From Escherichia phage vB_EcoM_AYO145A, in sequence record KR014248: DNA of 64,000 nucleotides; one strand, given 5' to 3'. Shown piece by piece: positions 14,815 to 63,040 of this stretch. The notes below the pieces were generated by a model, which had not been told where the DNA came from, searched no databases, and was given only the letters and a program-made list of their open reading frames with translations. Position 1 is the stretch's first letter, and every line of letters begins with the position of its first letter. Both the position numbers and the translations under genes were made by a program.

Positions 14815-14852
14815 TCGACGCAACGGGGCTAAATAGCCCCAGATACCTTTAT

Positions 14853-14879
14853 AGCCCCTTTCTCATAGGGGCTTTTTTA
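14853..14879 (+). terminator. rho-independent terminator closing the small-gene array
   Basis: AGCCCCtttctcatAGGGGCT followed by TTTTTT. Confidence 0.7.
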
Positions 14880-14880
14880 C

Positions 14881-16470
14881 GTCTATCCAATCCTTATACA
14901 ATCCCTTTCCCTTTCCTTTCCAGAATCTTATCAGACCTTAAAAGCAATAACTCTATAGTCCACTCTATAACCTTTTATCAAATCAACTTAAATATAAGCC
15001 CATAACCCGAAAGGGAAGGGCAACCATTTAAACGCTCTATAAAGCTCTATAACAGCCTTATCAACCTAACTTAAGGGATTGCATTAACTCACCCTAAAAA
15101 GCTCTTTATAAAGCTTCCTAGAGCCTTAAAAGAATCTTATAAGGGTGTAAGCTTTATCATCTCGTTAGTTCCTTGTGAACTACTAAAAAGGGCTTGTTAG
15201 TGTCTTAAAAGTATGTTATAGGGGCTATAAAGTTACTTCAAAGTTACGTAAAAGAGGCTATAAAGTTACGTAAATGCTAGCCCCCTTAACATTCTCTTAA
15301 CAAATTCTTAACAATCCCTACATAGTTATGCTTGCTAGAGACTTGTTAGCCCCTTGTTAAATCTCTGTTAAAACCACGTAAAAGCCTTGTAAGAGTCTTT
15401 GACATAGCCTTTAAAGCTCCTGTAAAGCCCTATAAAAAGGTATCTGTACAGTTGGGGTGTAATTACTAGGAAGAGGTTTAAGAGAGCTTACAAAGAGCTA
15501 TAGAGAGCTTTTAAGAGGTATGTTTAGAGAATCACTAAGAAAGAGAGGGAACGATAAGAAAGAGATAGTGACCATGTTAATAGCTTGTTAAAAAGATTAA
15601 ATACTTGTTAGAAACTTGTTAATTATCTTAACAAAATAACTCTTAAAAATTAACTTGTTAGCTCTTGTTAGTCATCTGTTAAGCCTCTGTAAAGACTATG
15701 TATTGACTGTTAAGAACTTGTTACAGCCTTGTTAGTTCTGTTAAGAATCTGTTAAGACCTCTGAAGAGATGTTAAGAGCTTGAGAGAGTTGTTAAGAGAT
15801 TGTTAAGGATATTTTAAAATTCTGCAAAGGGGGTGTTACAGGGATGTTAAGGGCTACCAAGCAGATATACATCTTCTACAGATATTTTTGAGTTCCTTCA
15901 AAGACCCTAAAAAATGACTTGATAGTCCTATTTTATAAAAATTTTAAAATTCTGAATAATTACCTATACAGTCTTTTAAAAATACAGGTAGAAACAGGCT
16001 TATAAGATACCTTGTTAGTACCGTGTTAGACCTTGTGAGATAAGGTCTGTAAAGATATTCCTGTTAAGTTTGTTAAAACAGTCTATATAGAGGCTTAGTA
16101 ATACCTAGTGAACACCTATAGAGAGTGTCATAGCTGACATAGAGATTAAGAGGTGTATAGGAGCTTCTAAGAGGGTGTAGAGGAATGGTTAAGGTGATTG
16201 TATAGGTTGTTAAGAGGGCTTGTTAGAAGAGTGTTTAGAAGGGTTATACAGAGGGGCTATTAAGACCACTAGATAGTTACTAAGATACTATATAGTACTA
16301 TATAACTATATAGAGAGTAAGATTAAGAAGGTTGTTAAGAAGGATAGATATTTTGTTCACATATGATGGTGACCCAGAGGTTGGGACAACCGATGAAATT
16401 TTATAAAAAATATAAATTTCGTAAATTTTACTCAATAAAAAGCCCCCAATTAAGGAGGCTCTTAAGATAT
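14881..16470. repeat. 1.6-kb non-coding region with about 30 short YTTGTTAR / GTTAAGAG repeats and AT-rich tracts
   Basis: no ORF of 60 aa or more on either strand; many CTTGTTAG/CTGTTAAG/GTTAAGAG copies; duplicated CTATAAAGTTACGTAAA; AT-rich blocks near 15900 and 16400. Confidence 0.7.
16436..16466 (-). terminator. rho-independent terminator (minus strand)
   Basis: reverse complement reads AGCCTCCttaattGGGGGCT followed by TTTTTATT, just downstream of the 16472 gene end. Confidence 0.5.
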
Positions 16471-16471
16471 T

Positions 16472-23728: not shown

Positions 23729-23955
23729 TTTTCAGTTCTCCTGCGGTTTATAATTTTGCTGCAATAGAGAAACGAAGTAAACTCACTGGAAGAAACCACT
23801 AAGTGTTGTTCACTAGATTGAGCCATTGCCCTGAAATACATTCCAGTCAAAGCATCATAGTGACTATTCTTTCCAATTGAGGTTATATAGCCATGACTCT
23901 TTGCAGTTTGATATAAATCTATAATATCTGCGATTTCTAATTGGGAACTACACAT
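23722..23955 (-). CDS. hypothetical small protein
   Basis: 77-aa ORF. Confidence 0.4.
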   Translation of the reverse strand: MCSSQLEIADIIDLYQTAKSHGYITSIGKNSHYDALTGMYFRAMAQSSEQHLVVSSSEFTSFLYCSKIINRRRTEKC

Positions 23956-24119
23956 AGATAATCCTCTTGTCTTCTGTAATTTTGAAAGAACAGGTACAGA
24001 CCAATTTCAGAGGACGAATAGTAGATTAATTCTACCCTTTTTGATTCCTTACAGTGATTGGTATTCTTACCTTTCTTCGGTTTATTTGATTTTCTCATTA
24101 AGTCTCCTTTGTAGAACAA
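23937..24119 (-). CDS. hypothetical small basic protein
   Basis: 60-aa ORF. Confidence 0.35.
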   Translation of the reverse strand: MFYKGDLMRKSNKPKKGKNTNHCKESKRVELIYYSSSEIGLYLFFQNYRRQEDYLCVVPN

Positions 24120-24347
24120 GGCAGACCTACAGCTTTAAGTAAGATGGTACAGTAATCCATACAACAAGTCAAGAACTATTGCAAGTTAAAAAAGTTGTTG
24201 ACAAAGGACTTGACAAGGTGTAGGCTTATAAATACTTAGAAGATAACTTAAAAGGTTCCTCTAAAAAGGCTATTTAAACAGATATCTTTCTGGATATCTA
24301 TCTTTTATCTTAAAAGCCTTTTAAGAGGTCTTATAAGAGGCATACCA

Positions 24348-24800: not shown

Positions 24801-26216
24801 ATGAGCGAATTATTTAAACATGCGCACCTTCATGCAGGTCGAACTGAAAATGGTGCTGTAAACCATACTTCATCAATGTCTGCTCTTGTAGACTTTTACA
24901 AAGCTGCTGGTTCTAGCCGTAGCAATGTAGGAATCTTACCAGACCTGTTCTACAAAGCTTTGCGTGAGGATGTTGATGTTGCAGTTCGTATTTTGCTTCA
25001 TATGCGAGATGTACGAGAAGGTATGGGTGAGCGTAAAGCTTTCCGAACTGTTTTACTTCAAGCGATTGAAGATAAAGTTTTAGAGCCTACGCAGGTTCTT
25101 CGCATTATGGATAAGATTGCAGAGCTTGGTCGTTTTGATGACTTCAAAATCTTCGTGGGTACTCGTTTCGAGACAGATGCCTTCAAACATTTAGAAGCAG
25201 CATTACTAGACCCTGCAACAGCAGGTTTGGCAGCTAAGTGGTTACCACGAGTCAAACCACGTCATAAGCAGTTTGTAAAACGTTTCTGCAAGTTTGCAAA
25301 CTTGAGTGAGAAAGAGTACCGCACACTGTTGTCTGCACTATCTGATACAGTTGAACAAAAAATCTCTGCTAATGAGTTTGGTAAGATTGACTACAGTAAG
25401 ATTCCTTCACTTGCTGCTGCACGTTACCAAAAACTCTTTAACCGTAAAGATGGAGAACGCTACAAAGCTTACATCGAGTCACTCTCAAAAGGTGAGGCCA
25501 AGATTAACGCTGGTGCTGTTTACCCATACGATGTGATTAAATCTATCAAGTATGGTAATGCAGATGTTGCTAATGAGCAGTGGAAAGCACTACCAAACTG
25601 GATGGTAGAAGGTGAAAACATCCTGTGTATGACTGATGTTTCAAGCTCAATGTCTTGGGTGAATCTTGGTTCAATCACTGCCCTTGATATTGGTGTATCC
25701 CTTGCCTTGTATGTAGCAGAACGCAATACAGGTTGTTTTAAGAATGAGTTAATGGTTTATTCAACAAACCCTCATTTCATCGAATTGAGTGGTGATTTAC
25801 GAAACCGTCATCGTCAGATAATGCGTCATGTTGAATATGGCTCAACTAACTTACAAGCAGCTTTTGACCGTATTCTTGAAATAGGCAAGAGAAACAACTT
25901 GACTCAGAAAGATATGCCAAGTAAGCTTATTATCTTCTCTGATATGGAGTTCAATCAGGTTGATGGAGCTAACGGTCGTACAAACTTTGAAGCAATTCAG
26001 AGTAAGTACAAAAAAGCTGGATATGAGATGCCACAACTGGTATTCTGGTACTTAGCAAACCGTAATGGTACTTGCGAAGTATCTGTTAAGGATAATGGTG
26101 TAGCAATGGTATCAGGGTTCTCTCCAGCCACTTTAAAAGCTCTGCTTGGTGGTGAGAAGTTTGACCCAATCAGCGTAATGCTCAAAGCAGTAATGATTGA
26201 CCGTTATATCTGGTAA
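24801..26216 (+). CDS. Ro60-like TROVE + vWA protein (Rsr-like)
   Basis: 471 aa; vWA MIDAS-like ILCMTDVSSSMSW and LIIFSDMEFNQ; central VYPYDVIKSI and C-terminal NG...GF..ATL resemble Ro60 as I recall it. Confidence 0.55.
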   Translation: MSELFKHAHLHAGRTENGAVNHTSSMSALVDFYKAAGSSRSNVGILPDLFYKALREDVDVAVRILLHMRDVREGMGERKAFRTVLLQAIEDKVLEPTQVLRIMDKIAELGRFDDFKIFVGTRFETDAFKHLEAALLDPATAGLAAKWLPRVKPRHKQFVKRFCKFANLSEKEYRTLLSALSDTVEQKISANEFGKIDYSKIPSLAAARYQKLFNRKDGERYKAYIESLSKGEAKINAGAVYPYDVIKSIKYGNADVANEQWKALPNWMVEGENILCMTDVSSSMSWVNLGSITALDIGVSLALYVAERNTGCFKNELMVYSTNPHFIELSGDLRNRHRQIMRHVEYGSTNLQAAFDRILEIGKRNNLTQKDMPSKLIIFSDMEFNQVDGANGRTNFEAIQSKYKKAGYEMPQLVFWYLANRNGTCEVSVKDNGVAMVSGFSPATLKALLGGEKFDPISVMLKAVMIDRYIW

Positions 26217-26234
26217 AAAGTTTTAAAAAGGGTA

Positions 26235-26263
26235 TTGACAATGTGTTTGATACCCTTTAATAT
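26235..26263 (+). promoter_or_regulatory. sigma70-like promoter (TTGACA-N17-TAATAT) inside the GGGTAT/ATACCC inverted repeat
   Basis: consensus boxes read by eye. Confidence 0.45.
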
Positions 26264-26325
26264 GTTCTACATAGAAACAAAATGAGAGCTTTTCTAAGAT
26301 ACTGAAAAATATTTTAAAAAAGTTC

Positions 26326-26355
26326 TTGACAACCACTAAAAAATAATGTTAAAGT
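26326..26355 (+). promoter_or_regulatory. promoter TTGACA-N18-TAAAGT upstream of the first tRNA
   Basis: TTGACAACCACT...AGTGGTT inverted repeat spanning the -10. Confidence 0.45.
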
Positions 26356-26381
26356 GGTTACATAGAGTTTGAAAAGTTTAT

Positions 26382-26458
26382 CTCTGTTTAGCTCAGCTTG
26401 GTAGAGCGTTCCGTTTGGGGCGGTAAGGCCGGAGGTTCAAGTCCTCCAACAGAGACCA
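26382..26458 (+). tRNA. tRNA-Pro(TGG)
   Basis: cloverleaf by eye; anticodon loop TTTGGGG; D- and T-arms close to E. coli tRNA-Pro; CCA encoded. Confidence 0.75.
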
Positions 26459-26465
26459 AATTAAT

Positions 26466-26543
26466 GTTCCAGTAGACAAAATGGTAAAGTCACCACTCTT
26501 TCAAAGTGGATATTTGAGGGTTCAAATCCCTTCTGGAACGCCA
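26466..26543 (+). tRNA. tRNA-Glu(TTC)
   Basis: acceptor GTTCCAG/CTGGAAC; anticodon loop CTTTCAA; T-loop TTCAAAT; CCA. Confidence 0.7.
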
Positions 26544-26550
26544 GTTTTGA

Positions 26551-26623
26551 CAGAAGACCAATTACAGCAAACTTAATCTTATTCATCTGACACGAAATCG
26601 GACAAAGAAGAGATTTGGTCTGG
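26551..26623 (+). ncRNA. structured spacer RNA candidate (CAGAAGACC...GGTCTGG family, copy 1)
   Basis: 5' CAGAAGACCA and 3' TGGTCTGG form the terminal helix; shared internal CAGCAA box. Confidence 0.3.
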
Positions 26624-26634
26624 TCATTAAGAAT

Positions 26635-26711
26635 TGCGGGTATAGAGAAAGGGCGTCTCACATGTCTCATTAGCATGGTATCGGCAGGTTCGACTCCTGC
26701 ACCCGCCTCCA
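26635..26711 (+). tRNA. tRNA-Met(CAT), or Ile2/fMet
   Basis: anticodon loop CTCATTA; T-arm GCAGGttcgactCCTGC; CCA. Confidence 0.55.
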
Positions 26712-26717
26712 ATTTTG

Positions 26718-26777
26718 CAGAAGACCGTATGCAGCAATAAACTACTTTTTGCGGATAAAAGAAAAAACACGGTCTGG
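26718..26777 (+). ncRNA. structured spacer RNA candidate (same family, copy 2)
   Basis: CAGAAGACCG ... CGGTCTGG; compensatory G:C where copy 1 has A:T. Confidence 0.3.
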
Positions 26778-26788
26778 CAATGTATTAA

Positions 26789-26865
26789 GGTTAGGAAGCA
26801 CATAAGGTATGTGCGGTCGCCTGTTAAGCGAATGGCACAGGGTTCGAATCCCTGACTAACCGCCA
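26789..26865 (+). tRNA. tRNA-Asn(GTT)
   Basis: anticodon loop CTGTTAA; T-arm CAGGGttcgaatCCCTG; CCA. Confidence 0.65.
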
Positions 26866-26874
26866 AATTTAAAT

Positions 26875-26962
26875 GTGTCGTTATCCCGTAGATGGTAGCG
26901 GTGGGGACTGTAAATCCCTTGTCATTGAGACTCGGTAGGTTCGACTCCTACACGGCACACCA
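26875..26962 (+). tRNA. tRNA-Tyr(GTA)
   Basis: 88 nt with long variable arm; anticodon loop CTGTAAA; CCA. Confidence 0.7.
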
Positions 26963-26968
26963 AATAAA

Positions 26969-27046
26969 GGTTATGTAGTTTAATCTGGTTAAAATACTCC
27001 CCTGTCACGGGAGATGATGAGGGTTCAAATCCCTTCGTAACCGCCA
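26969..27046 (+). tRNA. tRNA-Asp(GTC)
   Basis: anticodon stem CTCCC/GGGAG, loop CTGTCAC; CCA. Confidence 0.75.
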
Positions 27047-27133
27047 AATTATAATAAGTATTCCAAGATGATGTTTTGAGAGGGCTATTTAGCCCCTCCC
27101 TTAAAGAGTTCTTACGAGTATTCTTTAAAGGAG

Positions 27134-27210
27134 CAGAAGACCAAATTCAGCAAGTACGTATGATATTTTCAAGCCAATTTAATTTTGAAAAAATTTAAAA
27201 CTTGGTCTGG
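27134..27210 (+). ncRNA. structured spacer RNA candidate (same family, copy 3)
   Basis: CAGAAGACCAA ... TTGGTCTGG. Confidence 0.3.
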
Positions 27211-27223
27211 CTCAACAAATTTA

Positions 27224-27355
27224 CAGAAGACCGTTTACAGCAAAACTTAAACAATCTATTTCTCCGGTAAAGAAAAGGCGAAGGTTCGATTCCTTCACTC
27301 GGCAGATGTCGAGTTGGTGTAATGGTAGCACTTAAGATGATAAACAACGGTCTGG
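27224..27355 (+). ncRNA. Y-RNA-like RNA candidate (YrlA-type, permuted tRNA-like module)
   Basis: terminal helix AGACCGT/ACGGTCT; inside, T-arm GAAGGttcgattCCTTC, then ACTCGGC-agat-GTCGAGT acceptor-like hairpin, then TG and D-arm GTGTaatggtaGCAC; about 1 kb downstream of the Ro60-like gene. Confidence 0.45.
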
Positions 27356-27357
27356 TA

Positions 27358-27500
27358 ATTATCTTTGTAGATAAGTTATTAAGCTTACCTGTGAGTATGC
27401 GACCACAAAGGGTGAAAGGGTAAATTCTAGATTTAAACCCAACAAGGCACATCGCTACAGACCTTAAGCAAGTCTGGGTAGCTTATCTACAAAGATAATT
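27358..27500 (+). ncRNA. structured RNA candidate closed by a perfect 19-bp inverted repeat
   Basis: AATTATCTTTGTAGATAAG (27358-27376) is the exact reverse complement of CTTATCTACAAAGATAATT (27482-27500); internal CAGACcttaagcaaGTCTG hairpin. Confidence 0.35.
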
Positions 27501-27505
27501 TTAAT

Positions 27506-27581
27506 GGAAGTGTAGCAGAATGGTGATGCGGCAGACTTTTAATCTGACAGGCGATGGGTTCGAATCCCTCCACTTCTACCA
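27506..27581 (+). tRNA. tRNA-Lys(TTT)
   Basis: anticodon loop CTTTTAA; T-loop TTCGAAT; CCA. Confidence 0.65.
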
Positions 27582-27585
27582 ATAT

Positions 27586-27662
27586 GGTTCAGTCGCAGAT
27601 AAGGTAATGCAGGGGTCTCATAAGCCCTATGAATGTGGGTTCGATTCCCATCTGAACCTCCA
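27586..27662 (+). tRNA. tRNA-Met/Ile(CAT)
   Basis: acceptor GGTTCAG/CTGAACC; anticodon loop CTCATAA; CCA. Confidence 0.65.
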
Positions 27663-27663
27663 A

Positions 27664-27739
27664 GCTGGTATAGTTAAGAAGGTTATAACACTCCCCTGAT
27701 AAGGGAACATCGGTGGTTCGATTCCACCTACCAGTACCA
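27664..27739 (+). tRNA. tRNA-Ile(GAT)
   Basis: D-stem GTTA/TAAC; anticodon loop CTGATAA; T-arm GGTGGttcgattCCACC; CCA. Confidence 0.65.
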
Positions 27740-27754
27740 ATTTCAATAAAGTTG

Positions 27755-27783
27755 TTGACATTGAGATGTGACTACTTTATAGT
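27755..27783 (+). promoter_or_regulatory. sigma70-like promoter (TTGACA-N17-TATAGT)
   Basis: internal promoter inside the tRNA island. Confidence 0.5.
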
Positions 27784-27987
27784 AACCTTAGTTTTCGTTG
27801 CGTAGCGTCTATTTTGCAAATTTAAAATAAATGCAAACGACAATGTTTTTCTGGCAGTAGCTTGATAGGCTAAACACCAGTGAGGTCTTCCAATCCCTCA
27901 TCAAAGAATTTGGCGTACTCGCCCACGGTATGATTAATAAGGTGGGCATCTTTAAGGGCTTTCTAAGAGAGTCTTTAAAGATAATTA

Positions 27988-28069
27988 CGGGGCGTATCTC
28001 AGCGGTCTTCTAAACCGCCGTTAACCGAGTAAGTGGAGTATGCGGGTTCGAGTCCTGCCGCCTCGACCA
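27988..28069 (+). tRNA. tRNA-like, possibly Arg(TCT); non-canonical D region
   Basis: good acceptor (CGGGGCG/CGCCTCG), T-arm and CCA; GCGGTcttctaaACCGC fits an anticodon arm but leaves no room for a normal D-arm. Confidence 0.35.
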
Positions 28070-28211
28070 AATAGTTAGCAGATTACTTAGACGGTCTTAG
28101 CGGGTCTTCCTGTAGGGAGGTGGTCTGTATCTCATGTTTTCCAGAACATGTAAATAATCTGAGAAGGGGCTTTACAGTGTTGAGATAATACGGTAAGCTT
28201 CGAATTATAGT

Positions 28212-28294
28212 GTGGGACGATGTTAAGACTCTAAGGCATGAGCAACGGCTTCCAACACCGTTTCAAAGGGGTTCAACTCCTCCGTCCCATGCCA
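28212..28294 (+). tRNA. tRNA-like, possibly Trp(CCA); enlarged D region or anticodon loop
   Basis: acceptor GTGGGAC/GTCCCAT, T-loop TTCAACT, CCA; AACGG-cttccaaca-CCGTT contains CCA in a 7- or 9-nt loop. Confidence 0.35.
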
Positions 28295-28307
28295 AAGTCT
28301 TATTAGG

Positions 28308-28395
28308 GGTAGGTAGCGGCTAATGGTAGCCAAACTGTCTTGAAAACAGTTGCCACTGTAGAGATACGGTGAGGGTTCGACTCCTTTACTTACCG
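28308..28395 (+). tRNA. tRNA-Ser(TGA)
   Basis: class II: anticodon stem ACTGT/ACAGT, loop CTTGAAA, long variable arm; 3' CCA not encoded (GCCT). Confidence 0.65.
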
Positions 28396-28652
28396 CCTAA
28401 TAAGATTTAAAGCCAAGCTTCATTCGGATGTTGCTTTGGTATACCGCGTGTATTGTTGTACGCACTGATAAAGCACCTAGTAGGTGTCACGGAGAAGAGA
28501 TAATATCAAGCTCTCCAAAGGTTCTAGTCACCGGATTAAACAAGACTATGCAAAGACCTTTTTAGGTCTTTTTAGAGGGCTTCTAAGGTTATTACAGCTT
28601 GTTGTGGAACCTTGTTGCTTAGGTTCTTAGAAGTTCTCTAAAAAGACTTAAT

Positions 28653-28730
28653 GGGAGATTGACGGTAATTGGTAAACCTATCTCGCTTAGAACGAGATGT
28701 TTGAGGGTTCGAATCCCTTGTCTCCTACCA
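28653..28730 (+). tRNA. tRNA with anticodon TAG (Leu by anticodon; class-I-like shape)
   Basis: anticodon stem TCTCG/CGAGA, loop CTTAGAA; T-loop TTCGAAT; CCA; short variable loop. Confidence 0.5.
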
Positions 28731-28737
28731 AATTAAT

Positions 28738-28813
28738 GCAGGTGTAGCAAAATGGTTATGCGGCTGACTCTTAATCAGTAAGACGATGGGTTCAATTCCC
28801 TCCACCTGTACCA
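28738..28813 (+). tRNA. tRNA-Lys(CTT), tentative
   Basis: acceptor GCAGGTG/CACCTGT; anticodon loop CTCTTAA; weak T-stem; CCA. Confidence 0.5.
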
Positions 28814-28819
28814 AACAAT

Positions 28820-28895
28820 GGGGATGTAGTTTACATGGTTAAAACATAAGTTTTGCAAACTTAAGTACAGGGTTCAATTCCCTGCTTCTCCACCA
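28820..28895 (+). tRNA. tRNA-Ala(TGC)
   Basis: anticodon stem TAAGT/ACTTA, loop TTTGCAA; T-arm CAGGGttcaattCCCTG; CCA. Confidence 0.65.
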
Positions 28896-28901
28896 ATTAG
28901 T

Positions 28902-28976
28902 GCATCCATAGTTTAAACGGGAAAATTACAGTCTTCCAAACTGAGGTTGAGGGTTCGATTCCCTCTGGATGCTCCA
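28902..28976 (+). tRNA. tRNA-Gly(TCC)
   Basis: acceptor GCATCCA/TGGATGC; anticodon loop CTTCCAA; CCA. Confidence 0.7.
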
Positions 28977-28982
28977 AACAAT

Positions 28983-29059
28983 GCTGCTTTCGTATAATTG
29001 GCTATTACACATCCCTTGTAAGGATGGAAATGCAGGTTCGAGTCCTGTGAGCAGCACCA
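28983..29059 (+). tRNA. tRNA-Thr(TGT)
   Basis: anticodon stem CATCC/GGATG, loop CTTGTAA; CCA. Confidence 0.7.
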
Positions 29060-29062
29060 ATT

Positions 29063-29150
29063 CAGAGGTCAAGTGAAAGACCGCTTTGAGTCAACTGAAG
29101 ACCGTAACAAATTCCACGGAGTTGAGTTAGCGGCACAACTCCAGACCTCT
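29063..29150 (+). ncRNA. structured spacer element
   Basis: outer helix AGAGGTC/GACCTCT enclosing GGAGTTGagttagcggcaCAACTCC hairpin and a GAAGACCG box. Confidence 0.25.
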
Positions 29151-29155
29151 TTCAT

Positions 29156-29230
29156 ACTCGCTTAGTTTATATGGTAAAACATCACCCTTACAAGATGAAG
29201 AAAAAGGTTCAAGCCCTTTAGTGAGTACCA
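29156..29230 (+). tRNA. tRNA-Val(TAC)
   Basis: D-stem GTTT/AAAC; anticodon loop CTTACAA; CCA. Confidence 0.65.
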
Positions 29231-29231
29231 T

Positions 29232-29309
29232 GTTCCAGTATCCCAATTGGCAGAGGATGCAAGCTCAAACCTTGTATTAGTGACGGTTCGAATCCGTCTT
29301 GGAACACCA
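29232..29309 (+). tRNA. tRNA with anticodon CAA (Leu by anticodon)
   Basis: anticodon stem GCAAG/CTTGT, loop CTCAAAC; T-arm GACGGttcgaatCCGTC; CCA. Confidence 0.55.
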
Positions 29310-29314
29310 ATTTT

Positions 29315-29390
29315 GCAGGATTAGTTCAAATGGAAAGAGCAACAGTCTACGAAGCTGTTAATAGGGGTTCGAATCCCTTATCCTGCGCCA
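29315..29390 (+). tRNA. tRNA-Arg(ACG)
   Basis: acceptor GCAGGAT/ATCCTGC; anticodon loop CTACGAA; CCA. Confidence 0.7.
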
Positions 29391-29409
29391 ATTTAAAGAG
29401 GCTATTTAG

Positions 29410-29967
29410 ATGAGATATTTGAAGTATGCTTCATGGATTTTCTTAGCTTTGTTAGAGCCATTTGCAGCAATCTTAGCAGTTATCTTAGCACCTTTCGTAG
29501 TTCCATTCTACAGTGAGAAGAAAGGCCACTTACCTTTCGGATTTAGATGGATGGAGACCTATGACAACCCGATTGATGGTGATGAAGGCCACGTTAAAAG
29601 ATGGGCTAAGATTAGAAAGATTGGTAAGCTCGGTGTTTATATGCAGAGAGTTGGATGGCTCTGGAGAAACAAAGCTTATAACTTCTCTTACCATGTATTA
29701 GGAAGAGATGTAAAAGATGTTACTAAGTGGAAAGGTAATATCAACGTAAGTTCTAACCCTGAAGATAATCAGACAGGTTATCTCCTAATGTGGAACAGTA
29801 ATGCTTGGGGATTATTTGCTTTTATCCCATCTATTAAAGTCTTTGGTAAACAATTCTACTGGAGAATTTATGTTGGGTGGAAACTAAAAAGTGTTGTCCC
29901 AGAAGAAAGAGCATTCTCAAGGGAAAGAGTTATGTTGGCATTCTTTATTCATCCACTAAGAAAATAA
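29410..29967 (+). CDS. hypothetical membrane protein embedded in the tRNA island
   Basis: 185-aa ORF with N-terminal hydrophobic segment; flanked by tRNAs. Confidence 0.5.
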   Translation: MRYLKYASWIFLALLEPFAAILAVILAPFVVPFYSEKKGHLPFGFRWMETYDNPIDGDEGHVKRWAKIRKIGKLGVYMQRVGWLWRNKAYNFSYHVLGRDVKDVTKWKGNINVSSNPEDNQTGYLLMWNSNAWGLFAFIPSIKVFGKQFYWRIYVGWKLKSVVPEERAFSRERVMLAFFIHPLRK

Positions 29968-29975
29968 AGATTTAA

Positions 29976-30051
29976 AGGGGATTAGTTTACAAGGTTAAAA
30001 CCTCGGTCTTTGAAATCGAAGAAGTTGGTTCAATTCCAACATCCCCCGCCA
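29976..30051 (+). tRNA. tRNA-Gln(TTG)
   Basis: anticodon stem TCGGT/ATCGA, loop CTTTGAA; T-arm GTTGGttcaattCCAAC; CCA. Confidence 0.65.
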
Positions 30052-30053
30052 AT

Positions 30054-30132
30054 GCTCCATTACTCCAATTGGCAGAGAGGCCAGACTTAAAATCTGTGTT
30101 ATGTATCGGTTCGAATCCGATATGGAGTACCA
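30054..30132 (+). tRNA. tRNA with anticodon TAA (Leu by anticodon)
   Basis: anticodon loop CTTAAAA; T-arm ATCGGttcgaatCCGAT; CCA; 7-nt variable loop. Confidence 0.55.
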
Positions 30133-30137
30133 AATTT

Positions 30138-30213
30138 AGCGGTATAGCATAACTGGCAATGCAACAGTCTCTGAAGCTGTCCTATTAAGGTTCAAATCCT
30201 TATGCCGCTGCCA
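30138..30213 (+). tRNA. tRNA-Gln(CTG)
   Basis: anticodon loop CTCTGAA; T-arm TAAGGttcaaatCCTTA; CCA. Confidence 0.65.
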
Positions 30214-30244
30214 CTTCTAAGGGTTCTTACGAGAGTCCTTAAAT

Positions 30245-30320
30245 GTGGCCTTATCATAAAAGGTAATGACCCATGCTGTGAACATGGTCTATACGGGTTC
30301 AAATCCCGTAGGTCACCCCA
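30245..30320 (+). tRNA. tRNA-His(GTG)
   Basis: anticodon stem CCATG/CATGG, loop CTGTGAA; CCA. Confidence 0.7.
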
Positions 30321-30326
30321 ATTTAT

Positions 30327-30402
30327 AGTCCAAGTAGCTTATATGGTTAAAGCGCGTGTCTGAAAAACATGAGAAGAGGGTTCAAATCCCACTGGACTAC
30401 CA
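30327..30402 (+). tRNA. tRNA-Phe(GAA)
   Basis: D-stem GCTT/AAGC; anticodon loop CTGAAAA; T-loop TTCAAAT; CCA. Confidence 0.65.
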
Positions 30403-30418
30403 ATTTCAAAGGTGCTTA

Positions 30419-31153
30419 ATGAAAGAGATGACAGAACAAGGTAAGGAGATTTTTAATCTCTTAAAAACCGGTAAAGGGTTCTCTAACCCGCTTATTACTG
30501 GTGCAGCAGTTCTCGGTGGAACCGTAGCTGCTTCTACATCACTTGTAAGCTCTATTAGTTCTGTAACAGACCCTACAATGAAGGAGAAACTTGTTGCTGC
30601 TGGACTTACAACAGTCCTTTTAAACAGCTTTACAACAAGCCTTACAAGCACTACAGCAACTACTAAGACCCTAACAGACTACGGTCAAAAGTCTATTGAT
30701 GAGTTTTCATCACGTATGCAGGTAGCAAAGGGATACTCCAATGTTATGGGTGCAGTAGGAGAACAAGTTGGTTGTACACCATTCAGTGGTATTATGGGTG
30801 TTGCTACAGAGTATGGTCAAAAAGCTATTGACACAATTAACAGTGCACTAGACGGTGTTAATGATGTATTAAGTGACTTACAAGATGCTATTGATAAAGG
30901 TCTTGATACTGTTTCTGATTTAGCTAACCAAGCTGTTAGTAAGATTAATGAAGGTATCTCAAAGATTACAGCTTATGCAGATGAAGTTGTGCAGATGATT
31001 GAAGAAGAAGCTGCCCTTATTGCAGAGTACCTTAAAACAAATATCAATGGGTTCTTAGCAGGTATCTTACCAGACTGGTTTGATGATGCTTGTAAAACTG
31101 GTGTGATTGATACTATTGCAACACCAGAAATGAAGAACGCATTACAGAAATAA
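30419..31153 (+). CDS. hypothetical Ser/Thr/Ala-rich protein
   Basis: the ORF-track start at 30356 lies inside tRNA-Phe; first ATG after the tRNA is 30419; low-complexity N-terminal half. Confidence 0.5.
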   Translation: MKEMTEQGKEIFNLLKTGKGFSNPLITGAAVLGGTVAASTSLVSSISSVTDPTMKEKLVAAGLTTVLLNSFTTSLTSTTATTKTLTDYGQKSIDEFSSRMQVAKGYSNVMGAVGEQVGCTPFSGIMGVATEYGQKAIDTINSALDGVNDVLSDLQDAIDKGLDTVSDLANQAVSKINEGISKITAYADEVVQMIEEEAALIAEYLKTNINGFLAGILPDWFDDACKTGVIDTIATPEMKNALQK

Positions 31154-31154
31154 T

Positions 31155-31247
31155 GGAAGATTAACCCTAAAAGGTAAGGGAGCAGTTTGCTAAACTGCCA
31201 GTAGCTGAGAAATCGGTGTACCAGTTCAAGTCTGGTATCTTCCTCCA
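31155..31247 (+). tRNA. tRNA-Ser(GCT)
   Basis: class II, 93 nt: acceptor GGAAGAT/ATCTTCC, anticodon stem GCAGT/ACTGC, loop TTGCTAA, long variable arm; CCA. Confidence 0.65.
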
Positions 31248-31251
31248 ATTT

Positions 31252-31327
31252 GAATCCGTGACAGAAATGGCTATGTGCCTGTCTGCAAAACAGGTTTATA
31301 AGGGTTCGAGTCCCTTCGGATTCTCCA
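31252..31327 (+). tRNA. tRNA-Cys(GCA)
   Basis: acceptor GAATCCG/CGGATTC; anticodon stem CCTGT/ACAGG, loop CTGCAAA; CCA. Confidence 0.7.
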
Positions 31328-31489
31328 AGTTATTTTACTCTCTCTCAATTAAAATAATAATAATGCCCTGCTATAAGTATTCTTCCTTTCGCTACCGAAG
31401 AGTATTTTTAGACAGGGCTTTTTTACAGAGTTATACTTTATAGGAAGACTTATACAGTATGTCTCTGACGTACATTGTGGTTTCTCCTT

Positions 31490-31513
31490 GACGGTCTCTG
31501 TGCCGTCTTTTTT
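31490..31513 (+). terminator. rho-independent terminator
   Basis: GACGGtctctgtgCCGTC followed by TTTTTT. Confidence 0.6.
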
Positions 31514-31549
31514 AAGGGGAAACAATATTAATTATTTGGAGAAAACATA

Positions 31550-31750
31550 ATGAGTGAGAACGTTTATAAAGAACTTTATGAAGCTAACAAAAAGCTGGAA
31601 TTTATGCAGAACACTATCATGGCAATTGCAGACAGATTATCTGTAGCAACAGGTATTGATATCAAAGAGGCATCTATGGATGCACTTCTTGATGCTGTTG
31701 ATGCAAAGTTCGAAGTTAAGAAAGAAGAGACTGCTACAGACTCTGAATAA
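31550..31750 (+). CDS. hypothetical small protein upstream of terminase
   Basis: 66-aa ORF with GGAGAAAACATAATG RBS. Confidence 0.45.
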   Translation: MSENVYKELYEANKKLEFMQNTIMAIADRLSVATGIDIKEASMDALLDAVDAKFEVKKEETATDSE

Positions 31751-31771
31751 TTCTATTTGCGGAGGTGCTTA

Positions 31772-33373
31772 ATGGACTTAAATGCTGTTAAGCAGAAGCG
31801 AGTGGAAGATGTTAGGAAAGTCCTAGCTGGAGAGTTGGGGCTTTCTGATGAAGTAAAAGAAATTATCAAATCATTCGGTAAAGACCCCTCTAAATTCCTT
31901 CCAACTCAAATTCTGACTTTATTAAGATACACACCAGACCAAGTTAGACTTATCTTCAAATTGATGACTGATAAGAACTATGTAGCCCCTCAGCCGGGTT
32001 CTCAAGAGGTGTTTTTAAATACTAATGCTGACTTGGTTTTATATGGTGGTGCTGCTGGTGCTGGTAAAACTGCTGCATTGTTAATGGACTCTTTAAGATT
32101 TATTGAAGACCCTAACTATAATGCTGTATATTTCCGTCGAAATACAACACAGCTACAAGGTGGTTTATGGCCTGCTGCAAAGAAACTATTTGGTAAGTTT
32201 GGTGGGGTTCCTCACGAGCAGAAGATGACTATCACATTCCCTTCTGGGGCAACTATCAAGTTTACTTATTTAGAACTTGAAAAACACGCTGAAGGTCATC
32301 AGGGTATTGAATACTCAGCTATCTACTTTGACGAAGGTACACACTTCTCTGCCTCACAGATTTCATACCTACAGACCCGTCTACGTTCTGGTGCTGAAGG
32401 TGATTCATACATGAAGATTTCCATGAACCCAGACAGAGACCACTTCATTTATGATTGGGTAGAGCCATTCTTAGATGAAGAAGGTTACCCAGACCCTGAG
32501 AAATGTGGTCGTATTCGTTGGTATGTTATGAATGATGGTGTGATGGTTTCTGATTGGGAGAGAGACAAGATTCTTGAAATGTTTCCTCTTGAGATTCCTC
32601 AGACATACACCTTCATCTCTGGTACGATTGATGATAACCCAATTCTTGACTTCTTAGAACCTAAATATCGTGGTAAGTTGGAAAACAACACACCTGTAAA
32701 CGTTGCAAGACTTCGTTTCGGTAACTGGAAGGCTCGTGCAGAAGGTTCAAACTATTGGCAAAGACAATGGTGTGAGATTGTTGATTCACTCCCAGAAGAT
32801 GTGTTTGATGTCAGAGCATGGGACTTAGCAGCGACTTTACCATCTGAAATTAACCCTAACCCAGACTGGACAGCGGGTGTTAAGATGGGTAAATCTAAAA
32901 AAGACGGTTGCTATTATATCATTGATGTAGTAAGATTTAGAGATAGACCCTCTGGAGTCGAAACACAAATTAATTTGACTGCTGAAAGTGACGGTAAGCG
33001 AACTGGTATTTTTATCCCTCAAGACCCAGGCGCTGCTGGTAAATCCTATGCAACATCCCTCATCAGGAAACTTGCCGAGAAAGGTTATCGCGCAAGAGCT
33101 AAACCAACAAATAAAGATAAAGTTACCCGCTTTGCGGGATTTTCTGCTGCTTCTGAAGCTGGACTTGTAAAAGTCTTGAGAGGTAGTTGGAACGAAGCTT
33201 ACTTTCAAGAACTTGAAGGTTTTTGTGGTGATGGTAAAACTAAAGATGACCAAGTGGATGCTACCAGTGATGCTTTCAACAGTCTTAACGAAGTTAAATT
33301 ATTCAAGCCACCATCAATGGGTGCTCACACAGACTTAGTGAGAGGAAACCCATATGAGGGGCTTAGACGTTGA
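31772..33373 (+). CDS. terL: terminase large subunit
   Basis: Walker A LYGGAAGAGKTAA; GGAGG RBS before the ATG at 31772 (ORF-track start 31757 is a TTG). Confidence 0.8.
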   Translation: MDLNAVKQKRVEDVRKVLAGELGLSDEVKEIIKSFGKDPSKFLPTQILTLLRYTPDQVRLIFKLMTDKNYVAPQPGSQEVFLNTNADLVLYGGAAGAGKTAALLMDSLRFIEDPNYNAVYFRRNTTQLQGGLWPAAKKLFGKFGGVPHEQKMTITFPSGATIKFTYLELEKHAEGHQGIEYSAIYFDEGTHFSASQISYLQTRLRSGAEGDSYMKISMNPDRDHFIYDWVEPFLDEEGYPDPEKCGRIRWYVMNDGVMVSDWERDKILEMFPLEIPQTYTFISGTIDDNPILDFLEPKYRGKLENNTPVNVARLRFGNWKARAEGSNYWQRQWCEIVDSLPEDVFDVRAWDLAATLPSEINPNPDWTAGVKMGKSKKDGCYYIIDVVRFRDRPSGVETQINLTAESDGKRTGIFIPQDPGAAGKSYATSLIRKLAEKGYRARAKPTNKDKVTRFAGFSAASEAGLVKVLRGSWNEAYFQELEGFCGDGKTKDDQVDATSDAFNSLNEVKLFKPPSMGAHTDLVRGNPYEGLRR

Positions 33374-61946: not shown

Positions 61947-62164
61947 TTTCTCTTACCACCAATCTCTACGTCAATCACTTGAACATCACCAGCAACATCA
62001 AACTTATGAATGATGCTTTCCACAGTGTAAGTCCAACCCTCAATGCGAACCAATTCACCTTCTCGCGGTACGATTGGGTTACGTTGAGCTATGGTTGTAG
62101 TGGAGTGAACAGTATCATAACGGTAGATATAGTTTACTAAGACTTGCATCTTGAAAAACCTCAC
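61943..62164 (-). CDS. hypothetical small protein
   Basis: 73-aa ORF. Confidence 0.4.
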   Translation of the reverse strand: MRFFKMQVLVNYIYRYDTVHSTTTIAQRNPIVPREGELVRIEGWTYTVESIIHKFDVAGDVQVIDVEIGGKRK

Positions 62165-62397
62165 TCAATAACAGTAGTGTGTGATTGACTATTTTTACCA
62201 TAACGATAAGATGTTGTCGTTTGAGAGTTTGGACATCTTACAACAACAATATCTGTGCTTATTGCATCCTCATTCAGCTTATAGACTTTACAATCTTGCA
62301 TCTCTGGTGGGAGACTATAAGAAGCATTTTTATCTTCATAAGAAGGGTTGCAGCCAGATAGAAAAATAACACCAAGCACAATTACTGATTTCCACAT
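62161..62397 (-). CDS. small lipoprotein
   Basis: 78 aa; signal peptide with lipobox FLSGC. Confidence 0.5.
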   Translation of the reverse strand: MWKSVIVLGVIFLSGCNPSYEDKNASYSLPPEMQDCKVYKLNEDAISTDIVVVRCPNSQTTTSYRYGKNSQSHTTVIE

Positions 62398-62554
62398 AAT
62401 ACTTCTCCTGTCTGTTGTTCACGATACTCAAGCTCTCTGAAAGTTTTGTAGTAATGAATTTTGTAGTACGCTATCTCATTACTTTTTACATTTGTTTTGA
62501 GCAGATTCCAGTCAGAATCTTTACCCATCCTTCCCCAGAGACTATATAACTTAT

Positions 62555-62979: not shown

Positions 62980-63040
62980 AAGCCCTCCTATATAAGATAT
63001 AGTATAAGGTACTCTTCCATGAGCACCCTGTCAACACTAA

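Follow-up and report, generated by a model that had tools for sequence, protein, structure and literature searches.

The tRNA island of the Felix O1-type Escherichia phage vB_EcoM_AYO145A (Felixounavirus, Ounavirinae; sequence record KR014248) occupies positions 26382 to 31327 of a 64,000-nucleotide stretch that was analysed whole and is referred to here as the window. All coordinates are those of the window, and the RNAs, promoters and coding sequences (CDSs) described in and directly upstream of the island lie on the plus strand. The island itself is already known and is annotated in hundreds of Felix O1-like records. Over the full length of the region compared (26200-31600), identity is 95-98% to more than 160 Felix O1-like phages, which come from E. 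coli, Salmonella and Shigella, and 80-95% to about 190 further records; 233 records span at least 80% of the region with identities of 80-99%. In phage allfine, the same stretch is annotated with 24 tRNAs and two hypothetical or 'membrane' proteins, and is flanked by a 'conserved phage protein' and a terminase gene. The terminase large subunit gene of the window lies at 31757-33373 (Pfam and open reading frame (ORF) evidence). The initial annotation of this DNA described several 'structured spacers' between the tRNAs. These prove instead to be discrete conserved RNA genes, which include a transcript related to transfer-messenger RNA (tmRNA), here called tag RNA, and four elements that resemble Y RNAs and lie downstream of a gene for a putative Ro60-like protein. 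The island also holds two non-canonical tRNA-like genes.

Promoters had been placed in the initial annotation at about 26326 and 27755. Sites exist at both positions (TTGACA-18-TAAAGT with an extended TG, 26326-26355, 10 of 12 matches; TTGACA-17-TATAGT, 27755-27783, 11 of 12 matches and the best promoter match in the region), but the number of promoter-like sites, 15 against 12.4 +/- 3.5 in shuffled sequence, does not exceed expectation. Support for the 27755 promoter therefore comes from its conservation, both in relatives and in unrelated phages, directly upstream of the 5' end of a conserved RNA. An analogous promoter is present in Klebsiella siphophages, and promoters in two unrelated phage types place the 5' end of the tag RNA at the invariant motif (U)AGUUUUCGU.

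The whole predicted transcript, up to the 5' end of the next tRNA, spans 27789-27987 and is about 200 nucleotides long. It opens with an anti-tmRNA domain (27789-27818; RNAduplex), followed by an A-rich resume context (27819-27832) in which U at -5 and A at -4 take the places of U85 and A86 of tmRNA (Rfam alignment; ARAGORN 'resume consensus'; PMC2481249). Behind this leader stands a tag frame without a start codon (27833-27868), which runs from GCA to GCU, encodes ANDNVFLAVA and ends in UGA UAG. The stops lie in the loop of helix 5 (27851-27880; CUGG/CCAG and AGC/GCU), which is 97.5% paired and shows compensatory changes. Two pseudoknots come next. Pseudoknot A (27881-27913; UGAGG/CCUCA and CCAA/UUGG) is 98-99% paired, with seven pairs changed on both sides, and pseudoknot B (27914-27947; CGUAC/GUAUG and GCCCAC/GUGGGC) was defined from the covariation alignment and carries the conserved loop AUUAAUAA. 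A final hairpin, CUUUAAGGGCUUUCUAAGAGAGUCUUUAAAG (27950-27980), precedes the next tRNA.

Aligned to the tmRNA model of Rfam (16 bits), the central part of this RNA reads AAAAUAAAU GCA AAC GAC AAU GUU UUU CUG GCA GUA GCU UGA UAG, that is, ANDNVFLAVA and two stops. The tag of E. coli is ANDENYALAA. In 124 of the 124 phage pattern matches listed, the frame consists of exactly 10 codons and a stop, with 17 peptide variants. Its variation is concentrated at third positions (entropies of 0.61, 0.47 and 0.96 for codon positions 1, 2 and 3), and the last alanine codon uses all four third bases. An AUG that overlaps the resume codon in frame +1 was considered as a normal start and rejected, as the frame it opens varies in length (5-13 codons) and is not conserved. 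Helix 5 and the two H-type pseudoknots are 92% paired across 31 diverse sequences, and at 16 pairs both sides have changed; 500 shuffles produced nothing as good, and slid registers gave only 31-47% pairing. MAFFT supplied the covariation alignments, in which length variation leaves part of the pseudoknot B stem misaligned. The tag RNA is almost certainly a functional, conserved RNA of tmRNA descent, and its plan, as read from the aligned sequences, is homologous to the mRNA-like half of tmRNA without the tRNA-like domain (TLD).

BLAST searches recovered the tag RNA, always unannotated, in five further phage groups: Kolesnikvirus (Erwinia phage M7), Kuttervirus (Vi01), Gamaleyavirus (St11Ph5), T5-like phages and Klebsiella siphophages. 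A pattern scan of IMG/VR added at least 119 contigs, many of them lambdoid prophages, where the RNA lies between the Q antiterminator and holin genes. On P1-like plasmids it lies between dmt and a tRNA-Asn gene and carries the tag ANDDLMMVAA. Matches to the pattern occur in 691 of 5,426 complete E. coli genomes; most lie on P1-like plasmids, and none is annotated. Among GTDB species representatives, the same scan gave one true match (Pseudocitrobacter) and seven chance matches inside coding genes. No paper containing any of six common tag variants was found in a literature search.

A TLD of its own, with a G3.U70 acceptor stem, T arm and CCA, is missing from the tag RNA, which starts at the antisense motif and has no acceptor strand. 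Many lambdoid loci have no T arm within 900 nucleotides, and the sequence 3' of the tag RNA differs from lineage to lineage. The arrangement also departs from that of a two-piece (permuted) tmRNA: the D-loop-like motif has no acceptor 5' strand in front of it, and the promoter lies between the upstream tRNA-Ile and the tag RNA. With default settings, ARAGORN calls no tmRNA at tag RNA loci; with lowered thresholds it reports a 'permuted tmRNA' with the right tags, a call that was rejected, its tRNA domains being merely the nearest tRNA arms. Long-stem modules of lambdoid loci (CACAACAGGUAAGAGCAUUG...CAGUGCUCUUUCCGUUGUG) were tried as acceptor and P2 helices, and were discarded because they lack a conserved G.U pair and are not followed by CCA. 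A 126-nucleotide tRNA-shaped RNA of Kuttervirus was likewise dismissed as the TLD of the tag RNA: it has CCA and lacks G3.U70.

Some of these neighbours deserve description in their own right. The long-stem repeats surround variable inserts downstream of the tag RNA, some of which include a T-arm-like hairpin, GGGUUCGAAUCCC, and they occur in lambdoid prophages, P1 and Klebsiella siphophages (loci L003 at 1620-2000, L006, L008, L021 and L125 at 1680-1760). These repeats may serve processing by RNase III or RNase P, or may represent a further family of tRNA-like RNAs. The 126-nucleotide RNA of Kuttervirus/Ackermannviridae (L002 at 1846-1971, and L083) is cloverleaf-like, with a 6-bp acceptor stem, two extended arms, a T arm and a UCCA end; it directly follows the tag RNA in L083, lies about 190 nucleotides downstream of it in Vi01, and is called by neither the tRNA finders nor Rfam. 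In the N4-like Gamaleyavirus St11Ph5, a 72-nucleotide tRNA-Ala(CGC)-like gene without CCA (L004 at 1275-1346) stands directly behind a promoter about 150 nucleotides upstream of the tag RNA, and two more tRNA-like genes lie downstream.

The 5' domain of the tag RNA is complementary to the resume region of host tmRNA. Pairing was computed against SsrA of E. coli K-12, and the IMG/VR contigs carry no host assignment. In the predicted duplex, window positions 27789-27800 (UAGUUUUCGUUG) pair with SsrA nucleotides 95-106, 27805-27807 (GCG) with 89-91, 27809-27812 (CUAU) with 84-87 and 27813-27817 (UUUGC) with 77-81. The domain is thus antisense to nucleotides 77-106, a span that covers A86, the resume codon and codons 2-6. 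Three stretches are exact reverse complements of SsrA sequence: UAGUUUUCGUC of GACGAAAACUA (codons 3-6), GCGAC of GUCGC, which spans the resume codon, and UUUGCGG of CCGCAAA. The window duplex reaches -27.1 kcal/mol, compared with -16.3 +/- 2.9 for dinucleotide shuffles, and 65 representative 5' domains average -41 kcal/mol against SsrA nucleotides 49-112. Domains of a long type, which reach pseudoknot 1 (PK1; nucleotide 54), have z scores of -5.3 to -6.9 relative to dinucleotide shuffles, and those of the short type found in Felix O1 and M7 (nucleotides 77-106) have z scores of -3.6 to -3.8. Controls with the reversed host sequence fall at the level of the shuffles for most types, the exception being L011 (-25.0 versus -26.2). 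Complementarity therefore exceeds chance and is conserved in homologues.

Further features of the 5' domain agree with pairing in trans. Its conserved blocks are the blocks paired with the host, and in 55 long-type domains the host positions paired in at least 70% of duplexes are 55-62, 65-73, 75-80, 86-91 and 97-105, which include A86 and G90-C91. Frame choice depends mainly on A86, and tmRNA loses its activity when the resume codon lies within secondary structure (PMC2481249). Pairing with the host stretch from -9 to +33 scores -22.3, against -13.9 for the equivalent resume-and-tag stretch of the phage RNA itself; the phage frame has therefore diverged at precisely those places where the RNA would otherwise pair with itself. 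Cis structures for the domain (a PK1-like CUUUG/CAAAG helix or GGU/ACC) found no support across lineages, and antisense pairing explains the conservation better. The phage strand would leave the duplex at its PK1-proximal end and continue through 9-16 unpaired, A-rich nucleotides to its own resume codon, roughly the distance from PK1 to the resume codon in tmRNA itself. With this geometry, the antisense head would position the phage template at the normal starting point of the host template. At the level of sequence comparison, complementarity, structure and coding-type conservation of the tag RNA are established, and the RNA probably acts by pairing with host tmRNA.

Directly upstream of the island, the gene at 24801-26216 encodes a protein that matches Pfam DUF2828 and DUF7788 and, weakly, VWA. 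A single-sequence AlphaFold model of this DUF2828 protein had a predicted local distance difference test (pLDDT) score of 45, and an AlphaFold 2 model built on a 39-sequence alignment reached 88. When the latter was compared with the Protein Data Bank (PDB) by Foldseek, the top 12 matches were all Ro60/TROVE-vWA structures (9KOP, E 1.8e-9; template modelling (TM) scores of 0.52-0.61). They include Ro60 of Thermus phage phiLo (E 1.8e-9), human and Xenopus Ro60 (TM scores of 0.55-0.61) and Rsr of D. radiodurans. The alignments to Ro60 extend over more than 500 columns and cover both the HEAT-repeat ring and the vWA domain. Residues D279, S281 and S283 of the metal ion-dependent adhesion site (DxSxS) are invariant among homologues, and more than 2,800 DUF2828 relatives were scored. 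On this modelling, the product has a Ro60 fold.

In all 64 kb of the window, the sequence word AGAAGACC is found only four times, in each case at the opening of a Y-RNA-like element. Element 1 (26548-26626) has the outer helix UGAC/GUCA, an AGA/G internal loop, the inner helix AGACCAA/UUGGUCU and a CAGCAA motif. The outer helices of the other three are UUGC/GCAA (element 2, 26715-26780), GAGC/GCUC (element 3, 27131-27213) and UUAC/GUAA (element 4, 27221-27358). All four share the covarying 4-bp outer helix, the AGA/G internal loop, the inner AGACCnn/nnGGUCU helix and CAGCAA. Across 16 distinct sequences from Felix-type loci, 98.9% of cells in the terminal stem are paired and 30 are changed on both sides; none of 500 shuffles did as well, and slid registers gave 22-47% pairing.

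Element 4 resembles YrlA, the tRNA-mimicking Y RNA bound by bacterial Ro60, in which V, T, acceptor-stem (AS) and D modules follow one another inside a stem formed by the two ends (PMC4201824). In the same order, element 4 encloses a V hairpin, the T arm GAAGG-UUCGAUU-CCUUC (27279-27295), a loop-capped acceptor-like stem (ACUCGG/UCGAGU) and the D arm GUGU-AAUGGUA-GCAC. RNAalifold recovers all four modules, a partial Rfam tRNA match covers 27247-27297, and the acceptor-like stem shows compensatory changes, with three different sequences that all pair. Like YrlA, the window RNAs have 5' and 3' ends that form a stem and are encoded beside a Ro60-like gene. A 153-kb phage of a different group encodes a DUF2828/Ro60-like protein 48% identical to that of the window, followed by a promoter, a simple Y-like RNA (GAAGAC..CAGCAA..GUUCUUC), a YrlA-like RNA and 13 tRNAs. 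Its YrlA-like RNA consists of AGAAGGU..CAGCAAC.., a V hairpin, a T arm, UCAGGUC-UUU-GACUUGA, a D arm and ..ACCUUCU. The architecture of element 4 is the same in L141.

Two smaller features accompany these RNAs. The 96-nucleotide spacer at 29060-29155, which is closed by AGAGGUC/GACCUCU and contains GAAGACCGU, may be a degenerate fifth member of the Y-like set, judging by these motifs. A hairpin repeat with the loop UUCUUACGAGAG (AAGGGUUCUUACGAGAGUCCUUAA) lies just 5' of several tRNAs and Y-like RNAs (27101-27131, 27950-27980 and 30216-30246 in the window; about 3180-3210 in L005) and may be a processing or protein-binding site.

Two tRNA-like genes of the island are non-canonical. The one at 27988-28069, directly behind the tag RNA, has a 7-bp acceptor stem, no D arm, a 20-nucleotide variable region, a T arm, G3.U70, A73 and CCA. 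Its anticodon loop, CUUCUAA (UCU, Arg), is invariant, and homologues in four unrelated phages (muut, SE_PL, KpS8 and A4) supply six compensatory pairs. Comparison with these homologues identifies it as a conserved, non-canonical tRNA-Arg(UCU)-like gene. Versions without a D arm, 83-90% conserved and never annotated, occur in Stephanstirmvirinae, Vequintavirinae, Asteriusvirus and SE_PL (L127 at 1201-1283, L128, L129 and L130, besides the window). G3.U70 is present in four of five such sequences, and one homologue has G3-C70. With G3.U70, A73, CCA and no D arm, this gene was also considered as the missing alanine TLD of the tag RNA. That assignment was rejected in view of the invariant CUUCUAA loop, the homologues in phages that lack tag RNA, the G3-C70 variant, and the ordinary tRNA-Arg(UCU) or, in M7, tRNA-Leu found at this place in close relatives.

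The second such gene, at 28212-28294, resembles tRNA-Trp(CCA) and is conserved in relatives. It has G1.U72 (A1-U72 in relatives), G73, an encoded CCA end and an odd D arm. Its anticodon arm, ACGGC-UUCCAAC-ACCGU, presents the anticodon CCA at 28252-28254 with a C31.A39 mismatch, and the loop in relatives is CUCCAAA. The identity set of E. coli tRNA-Trp comprises A1-U72, G73 and CCA. The gene is rejected by ARAGORN and by the Rfam tRNA model, and the tRNA-Sec model alone matches it, with 22 bits. That the gene functions is plausible. An alternative registration as a quadruplet decoder with a 9-nucleotide anticodon loop was abandoned, since re-registering on the relatives gives a 7-nucleotide loop with C31.A39. 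The spacer between the two genes (28070-28211) is conserved and contains GGAGGUGGUCUGUAUCUC, which is also found in Erwinia phage M7, and several GGUCUU or GGUCUG words; a 7-codon ORF in it, behind a Shine-Dalgarno-like GGAGG, is not kept in M7.

The remaining tRNA genes are canonical predictions, called by both ARAGORN and Rfam unless stated otherwise. A sigma-70-like promoter (TTGACA-17-TAATAT, 26235-26263, 10 of 12 matches) precedes the site at 26326, and the series then opens with tRNA-Pro(UGG) at 26382-26458 (57.7 bits), tRNA-Glu(UUC) at 26466-26543 (60.6 bits), an unusual tRNA(CAU) at 26635-26711 (ARAGORN only), tRNA-Asn(GUU) at 26789-26865, class II tRNA-Tyr(GUA) at 26875-26962 (ARAGORN; in Rfam, the tRNA-Sec model alone reaches 29.6 bits) and tRNA-Asp(GUC) at 26969-27046 (65.2 bits). 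After Y-like elements 3 and 4 come tRNA-Lys(UUU) at 27506-27581, the second tRNA(CAU) at 27586-27662 (54.3 bits) and tRNA-Ile(GAU) at 27664-27739. Class II tRNA-Ser(UGA) follows the non-canonical pair at 28308-28397 (Rfam gathering run). Beyond a 255-nucleotide spacer lie tRNA-Leu(UAG) at 28653-28730, tRNA-Lys(CUU) at 28738-28813, tRNA-Ala(UGC) at 28820-28895, tRNA-Gly(UCC) at 28902-28976, tRNA-Thr(UGU) at 28983-29059, tRNA-Val(UAC) at 29156-29230, tRNA-Leu(CAA) at 29232-29309 and tRNA-Arg(ACG) at 29315-29390. The last groups are tRNA-Gln(UUG) at 29976-30051, tRNA-Leu(UAA) at 30054-30132, tRNA-Gln(CUG) at 30138-30213, tRNA-His(GUG) at 30245-30320 and tRNA-Phe(GAA) at 30327-30402, and then class II tRNA-Ser(GCU) at 31155-31247 and tRNA-Cys(GCA) at 31252-31327.

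Some of these tRNAs have unusual shapes. Bacterial tRNA-Leu is a class II tRNA with a long extra arm. All three leucine tRNAs of the island (UAG, CAA and UAA) have variable loops of 4-7 nucleotides (4 in UAG) and a 3-bp D stem, which gives them a class I shape, and the Leu(CAA) gene of Erwinia phage M7 looks alike. The tRNA(CAU) at 26635-26711 has a U1.C72 mismatch, an initiator-like feature, and U37. Met, fMet and Ile2 identities are not distinguishable from sequence for the two CAU tRNAs.

The dense cluster of tRNAs, all on the plus strand and with exactly the limits first proposed, is borne out by the 25 genes that ARAGORN finds. Three tRNAs with a CAT anticodon had been claimed and only two exist, at 26635 and 27586. 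The count of about 27 tRNAs for all 20 amino acids holds with the two non-canonical genes included (27 genes with 27 anticodons for 20 amino acids), but the 25 ARAGORN calls serve 19 amino acids and lack Trp, so that coverage would be complete only if the non-canonical genes function. Agreement between predictors is good: of the 25 ARAGORN genes, 22 pass the gathering score of Rfam RF00005 in both runs and Ser-UGA in the gathering run only, which leaves out Met-CAT 26635 and Tyr 26875. RF00005 adds a 26th tRNA-like gene (27988-28066, 31.7 bits), for a total of 23 shared genes and one more. The initial annotation is confirmed in part, and the Trp gene is rejected by both programs. Lowering the ARAGORN threshold to 95% adds nothing, and at 80-90% only a few low-scoring calls appear that overlap real tRNAs or look spurious. 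CCA is encoded in every tRNA gene of the island.

Besides RNAs, the island contains two CDSs, where a single one had been reported. The known one (29410-29967), with a hydrophobic N-terminus, belongs to the DUF7338 family (Pfam, E 8e-62). The other (30419-31153) is a DUF7217 member (E 3.9e-89) that relatives label 'putative membrane protein' or 'holin'. A long hairpin read from the sequence at 31365-31424 (GCCCUG...CAGGGC, then UUUUUU) is probably the terminator of the island; it is not among the matches of a scan for short-loop terminators. In the 255-nucleotide spacer at 28398-28652, a terminator-like hairpin, AAAGACCUUUUUAGGUCUUUUU, at about 28556-28577 is followed by a long hairpin (28578-28645) that gave chance matches to microRNAs (miRNAs) in Rfam. 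Spacer matches to plant or animal miRNAs, plastid untranslated-region motifs and small nucleolar RNAs were dismissed as chance, far below threshold. Elsewhere in the window, three stretches of 0.6-1.7 kb without an ORF of at least 80 codons (14815-16471, 23729-24347 and 62141-63040) have no Rfam match at the gathering score.

The G+C content of the window is 38.9%, and in comparison with host codon usage the tRNA set fits the A/T-rich codons of the phage. AGA, ACA, AAG, UCA, GUA, CUA, CCA and UUA are each 1.6-4.7 times commoner than in E. coli, and each has a cognate phage tRNA. AGA is the most over-used, at 4.7-fold; these ratios depend on the E. coli codon table used. Many other cognate codons, such as GAA, UUC and CAC, are not enriched. 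The near-complete set had been thought to suggest substantial translational independence from the host. The set is indeed nearly complete if both non-canonical genes are functional, but supplementation describes its role better than independence, because many codons still need wobble or host tRNAs and the island encodes no aminoacyl-tRNA synthetase or modification enzyme.

The explanation that we favour, with moderate confidence in it as a whole, combines tRNA supplementation, a Ro60-Y RNA module and a tag RNA that docks on host tmRNA and replaces its template. The 25 canonical and two non-canonical tRNAs would be transcribed from the promoters at 26235, 26326 and 27755, cut out of their precursors by host tRNA-processing enzymes, and used to top up the host pool for A/T-rich codons, an established type of function. 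The bulged terminal stem and CAGCAA would be the site bound by the Ro60-like protein, and the protein and four RNAs would form a phage Ro60-Y RNA particle that acts on structured or tRNA-like RNAs. The 30 nucleotides at the 5' end of the tag RNA would pair over A86, the resume codon and codons 2-6 and so mask the host tag template. Immediately 3' of this duplex, the phage RNA would present its own U-A resume context, 10-codon frame, helix 5 and two pseudoknots. Docked in this way, it could ride Ala-tmRNA and SmpB of the host into stalled ribosomes, and translation would resume on the phage frame, such that rescued proteins receive ANDNVFLAVA rather than ANDENYALAA. The preferred docking and tag-swap mechanism is based on the antisense geometry. 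That the frame is translated as a replacement tag seems nearly an even proposition. Somewhat more tentative is the wider proposal that enterobacterial phages from six or more unrelated groups carry the gene for a parasitic 'third piece' of tmRNA, which pairs with and silences the host tag template and supplies its own.

Several observations weigh against this account of the tag RNA. Its scores in Rfam (RF00023, RF04321 and RF01849), 16-31 bits, do not reach the gathering scores of 47-50. The conserved frame overlaps helix 5, and its conservation is partly structural. The short-type duplex of the window has only about 24 bp and is matched by 1 of 300 shuffles, and in the divergent homologue L052 the complementarity to E. 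coli tmRNA is not significant (z -1.2). In two-piece tmRNAs, the tRNA-like and mRNA-like parts are held together non-covalently and share the acceptor stem and P2; we know of no precedent for a template held solely by an intermolecular antisense duplex. The main rival treats the tag RNA as an antisense inhibitor of host tmRNA, with no translation of its frame. The resume region would be masked or cleaved, and the tmRNA-like 3' part would serve stability or titrate SmpB or S1. Complementarity over A86 and the resume codon agrees with this proposal, as do the reported inactivation of tmRNA by base pairing of the resume codon (PMC2481249) and a TLD-only phage RNA, that of DS6A, thought to inhibit tmRNA (PMC4131195). 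What it fails to explain is why the frame always has 10 codons and a stop, why variation falls at third positions, why the peptides follow the AND...(L)xAA pattern of real tags, and why every lineage keeps the U-A resume context. On balance, inhibition alone appears unlikely. A self-sufficient but unusual tmRNA, whose TLD lies nearby or elsewhere in the phage, is very improbable. Candidates for such a domain are the D-armless gene at 27988-28069, which directly follows the tag RNA and has G3.U70, A73 and CCA, and the T-arm-bearing elements found after pseudoknot B in Kuttervirus and some lambdoid loci; relaxed ARAGORN runs even call a permuted tmRNA with these tags. Yet those calls force the domain onto whichever tRNA is near, many lambdoid loci lack a T arm within 900 nucleotides, and RNase P would separate a downstream tRNA from the tag. 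The gene at 27988-28069 itself keeps an invariant Arg-UCU loop, occurs in phages without tag RNA, and is replaced in relatives by tRNA-Arg or (M7) tRNA-Leu. Prophages often carry ssrA fragments from integration at ssrA (PMC9004378), and the tag RNA might be such a fragment, acquired by recombination and decaying without function. This idea is disfavoured, already weakened by the covariation, and its likelihood is close to negligible: compensatory changes are conserved across at least six unrelated groups (Ounavirinae, Ackermannviridae, Schitoviridae, P1, lambdoids and Klebsiella siphophages), and the RNA has its own promoters, far from attachment sites.

The other two parts of the preferred explanation face rivals as well. 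The four AGAAGACC...GGUCUGG elements could be tRNA-gene debris or RNA-processing hairpins with no tie to the upstream protein. They sit between tRNAs, where processing signals are expected, and element 4 includes tRNA-derived arms. The Ro60-Y RNA assignment is further burdened by the lack of any RF02553 (YrlA) match at the four sites, by the absence from the Y-like RNAs of the GNCGAAN0-1G motif of known YrlA, in place of which CAGCAA is found, and by weak single-sequence folding z scores (-1.2 to -1.6), which leave the evidence comparative. On the protein side, Pfam gives DUF2828/DUF7788 only, with no sequence match to TROVE or a solved Ro60; a sequence search of the PDB returned nothing significant, and a profile search against it reached Ro60 only at E 0.24. 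Debris would not, however, be expected to show a shared bulged stem that covaries, CAGCAA in all copies and in a distant phage with a DUF2828/Ro60-fold gene, or the module order of YrlA, and we consider it quite improbable. For the tRNA set, the alternative is that it mainly counters host defences that target tRNAs, or the loss of host tRNAs that the phage itself induces, rather than matching codon usage. Under this view, nuclease resistance would account for the non-canonical Arg and Trp tRNAs and for the class I-shaped Leu tRNAs. In favour of defence, the tRNAs of phage T5 evade anticodon nucleases, unusual architectures are seen in several tRNAs of the island, and many cognate codons (for example GAA, UUC and CAC) show no enrichment. 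The strongest codon enrichments (AGA, ACA, AAG, UCA, GUA and CUA) nonetheless all have cognate phage tRNAs. Defence as the main role seems rather doubtful, and the two roles are not mutually exclusive.

If the template swap is real, trans-translation in infected cells would attach a peptide chosen by the phage (AANDNVFLAVA, ...LMAA and others) with a C-terminus unlike the ClpXP degron ...ALAA. Ribosome rescue would then have its template reprogrammed in trans by a virus, for the first time, and viruses would have a new means of controlling this process and what becomes of truncated proteins. Of the host tag, ClpX recognizes the three C-terminal residues (LAA) and SspB recognizes AANDENY. The C-termini of the phage tags are ...LAVA, ...LMAA or ...LAAA in place of ...ALAA, and it may be speculated that they keep SspB binding while changing proteolysis. 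The mechanism could bear on old observations that some phages need tmRNA activity but not the tag, and it would provide a naturally occurring means of re-templating tmRNA. Read minimally, as a phage anti-tmRNA, the RNA would still be new. The carriers of tag RNA include classic phages such as P1 and Felix O1 as well as lambdoid prophages. For the neighbouring module, DUF2828, a very large phage family, would gain a Ro60-like fold, Y RNAs and a testable function, and the Ro60-Y RNA system would extend to many tRNA-rich phages of Enterobacteria and Vibrio.

Among known systems, the nearest to the island are the tRNA clusters of Felix O1-like phages (Felixounavirus) and of other large coliphages (T4, T5 and KVP40). 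Annotated Felixounavirus records have the same genes in the same place and list 22-25 tRNAs. They omit the two non-canonical genes or call them 'tRNA-OTHER' or pseudogene, and they leave all spacer RNAs unannotated. The upstream protein shares its fold, a TROVE ring with a vWA domain, with Ro60 (Rsr), which occurs with YrlA or YrlB in bacteria, mycobacteriophages, CcrColossus, Bacillus phage G and phiLo. It differs from solved Ro60s in belonging to the DUF2828/DUF7788 family, with only 12-16% identity. Phage Ro60/Y RNA pairs are known from mycobacteriophages, CcrColossus, Bacillus phage G and phiLo (PMC12135203), and no paper that links DUF2828 to such pairs was found. As in Ro60-Y RNA systems, the window RNAs adjoin the protein gene, have a bulged end stem, include one V-T-AS-D tRNA mimic and number several per genome. 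Known YrlA RNAs have GNCGAAN0-1G, whereas the RNAs of the window have CAGCAA, escape detection by RF02553 and are embedded in a tRNA island. Because CAGCAA replaces the known motif and the Rfam YrlA model finds no match, the module is called a variant of the Ro60/YrlA system and not a member of it.

The nearest known system to the tag RNA is tmRNA (SsrA), in its one-piece and two-piece (permuted) forms and in the versions carried by mycobacteriophages, Bacillus phage G and marine myophages. AgvB and AsxR, anti-small RNAs (anti-sRNAs) of prophages in pathogenic E. coli, sponge Hfq-dependent regulators. The tag RNA resembles them as a phage RNA proposed to pair with a host non-coding RNA, and is unlike them in that its target is tmRNA and it brings a substitute template. 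The tmRNAs known from phages either form complete genes or consist of the TLD alone (cluster C mycobacteriophages, Bacillus phage G, DS6A and marine myophages); ARAGORN detects tmRNA in 2.3% of phage genomes (PMC4131195, PMC9004378, PMC11915505). The literature on phage tmRNAs reports none from the enterobacterial phages considered here, and no paper on a phage antisense RNA to tmRNA was found. The TLD-only RNA of mycobacteriophage DS6A is likewise a partial tmRNA of a phage that is thought to interfere with trans-translation (PMC4131195); it keeps the TLD without a tag, and the tag RNA keeps the tag without a TLD. With tmRNA the tag RNA shares the A-rich leader, U-A at -5 and -4, the GCA resume codon, a 10-codon AND... 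tag with a hydrophobic-Ala end, stops in helix 5 and pseudoknots downstream. Unlike tmRNA, it lacks its own acceptor strand, T arm and CCA and fails the Rfam and default ARAGORN models, and unlike any described tmRNA its 5' domain is antisense to the host tmRNA template. Its presumed partner also sets it apart from two-piece tmRNA, being the complete tmRNA of the host rather than a dedicated acceptor piece. The tag RNA is thus at least a new variant of tmRNA, and would be categorically new if the template swap holds.

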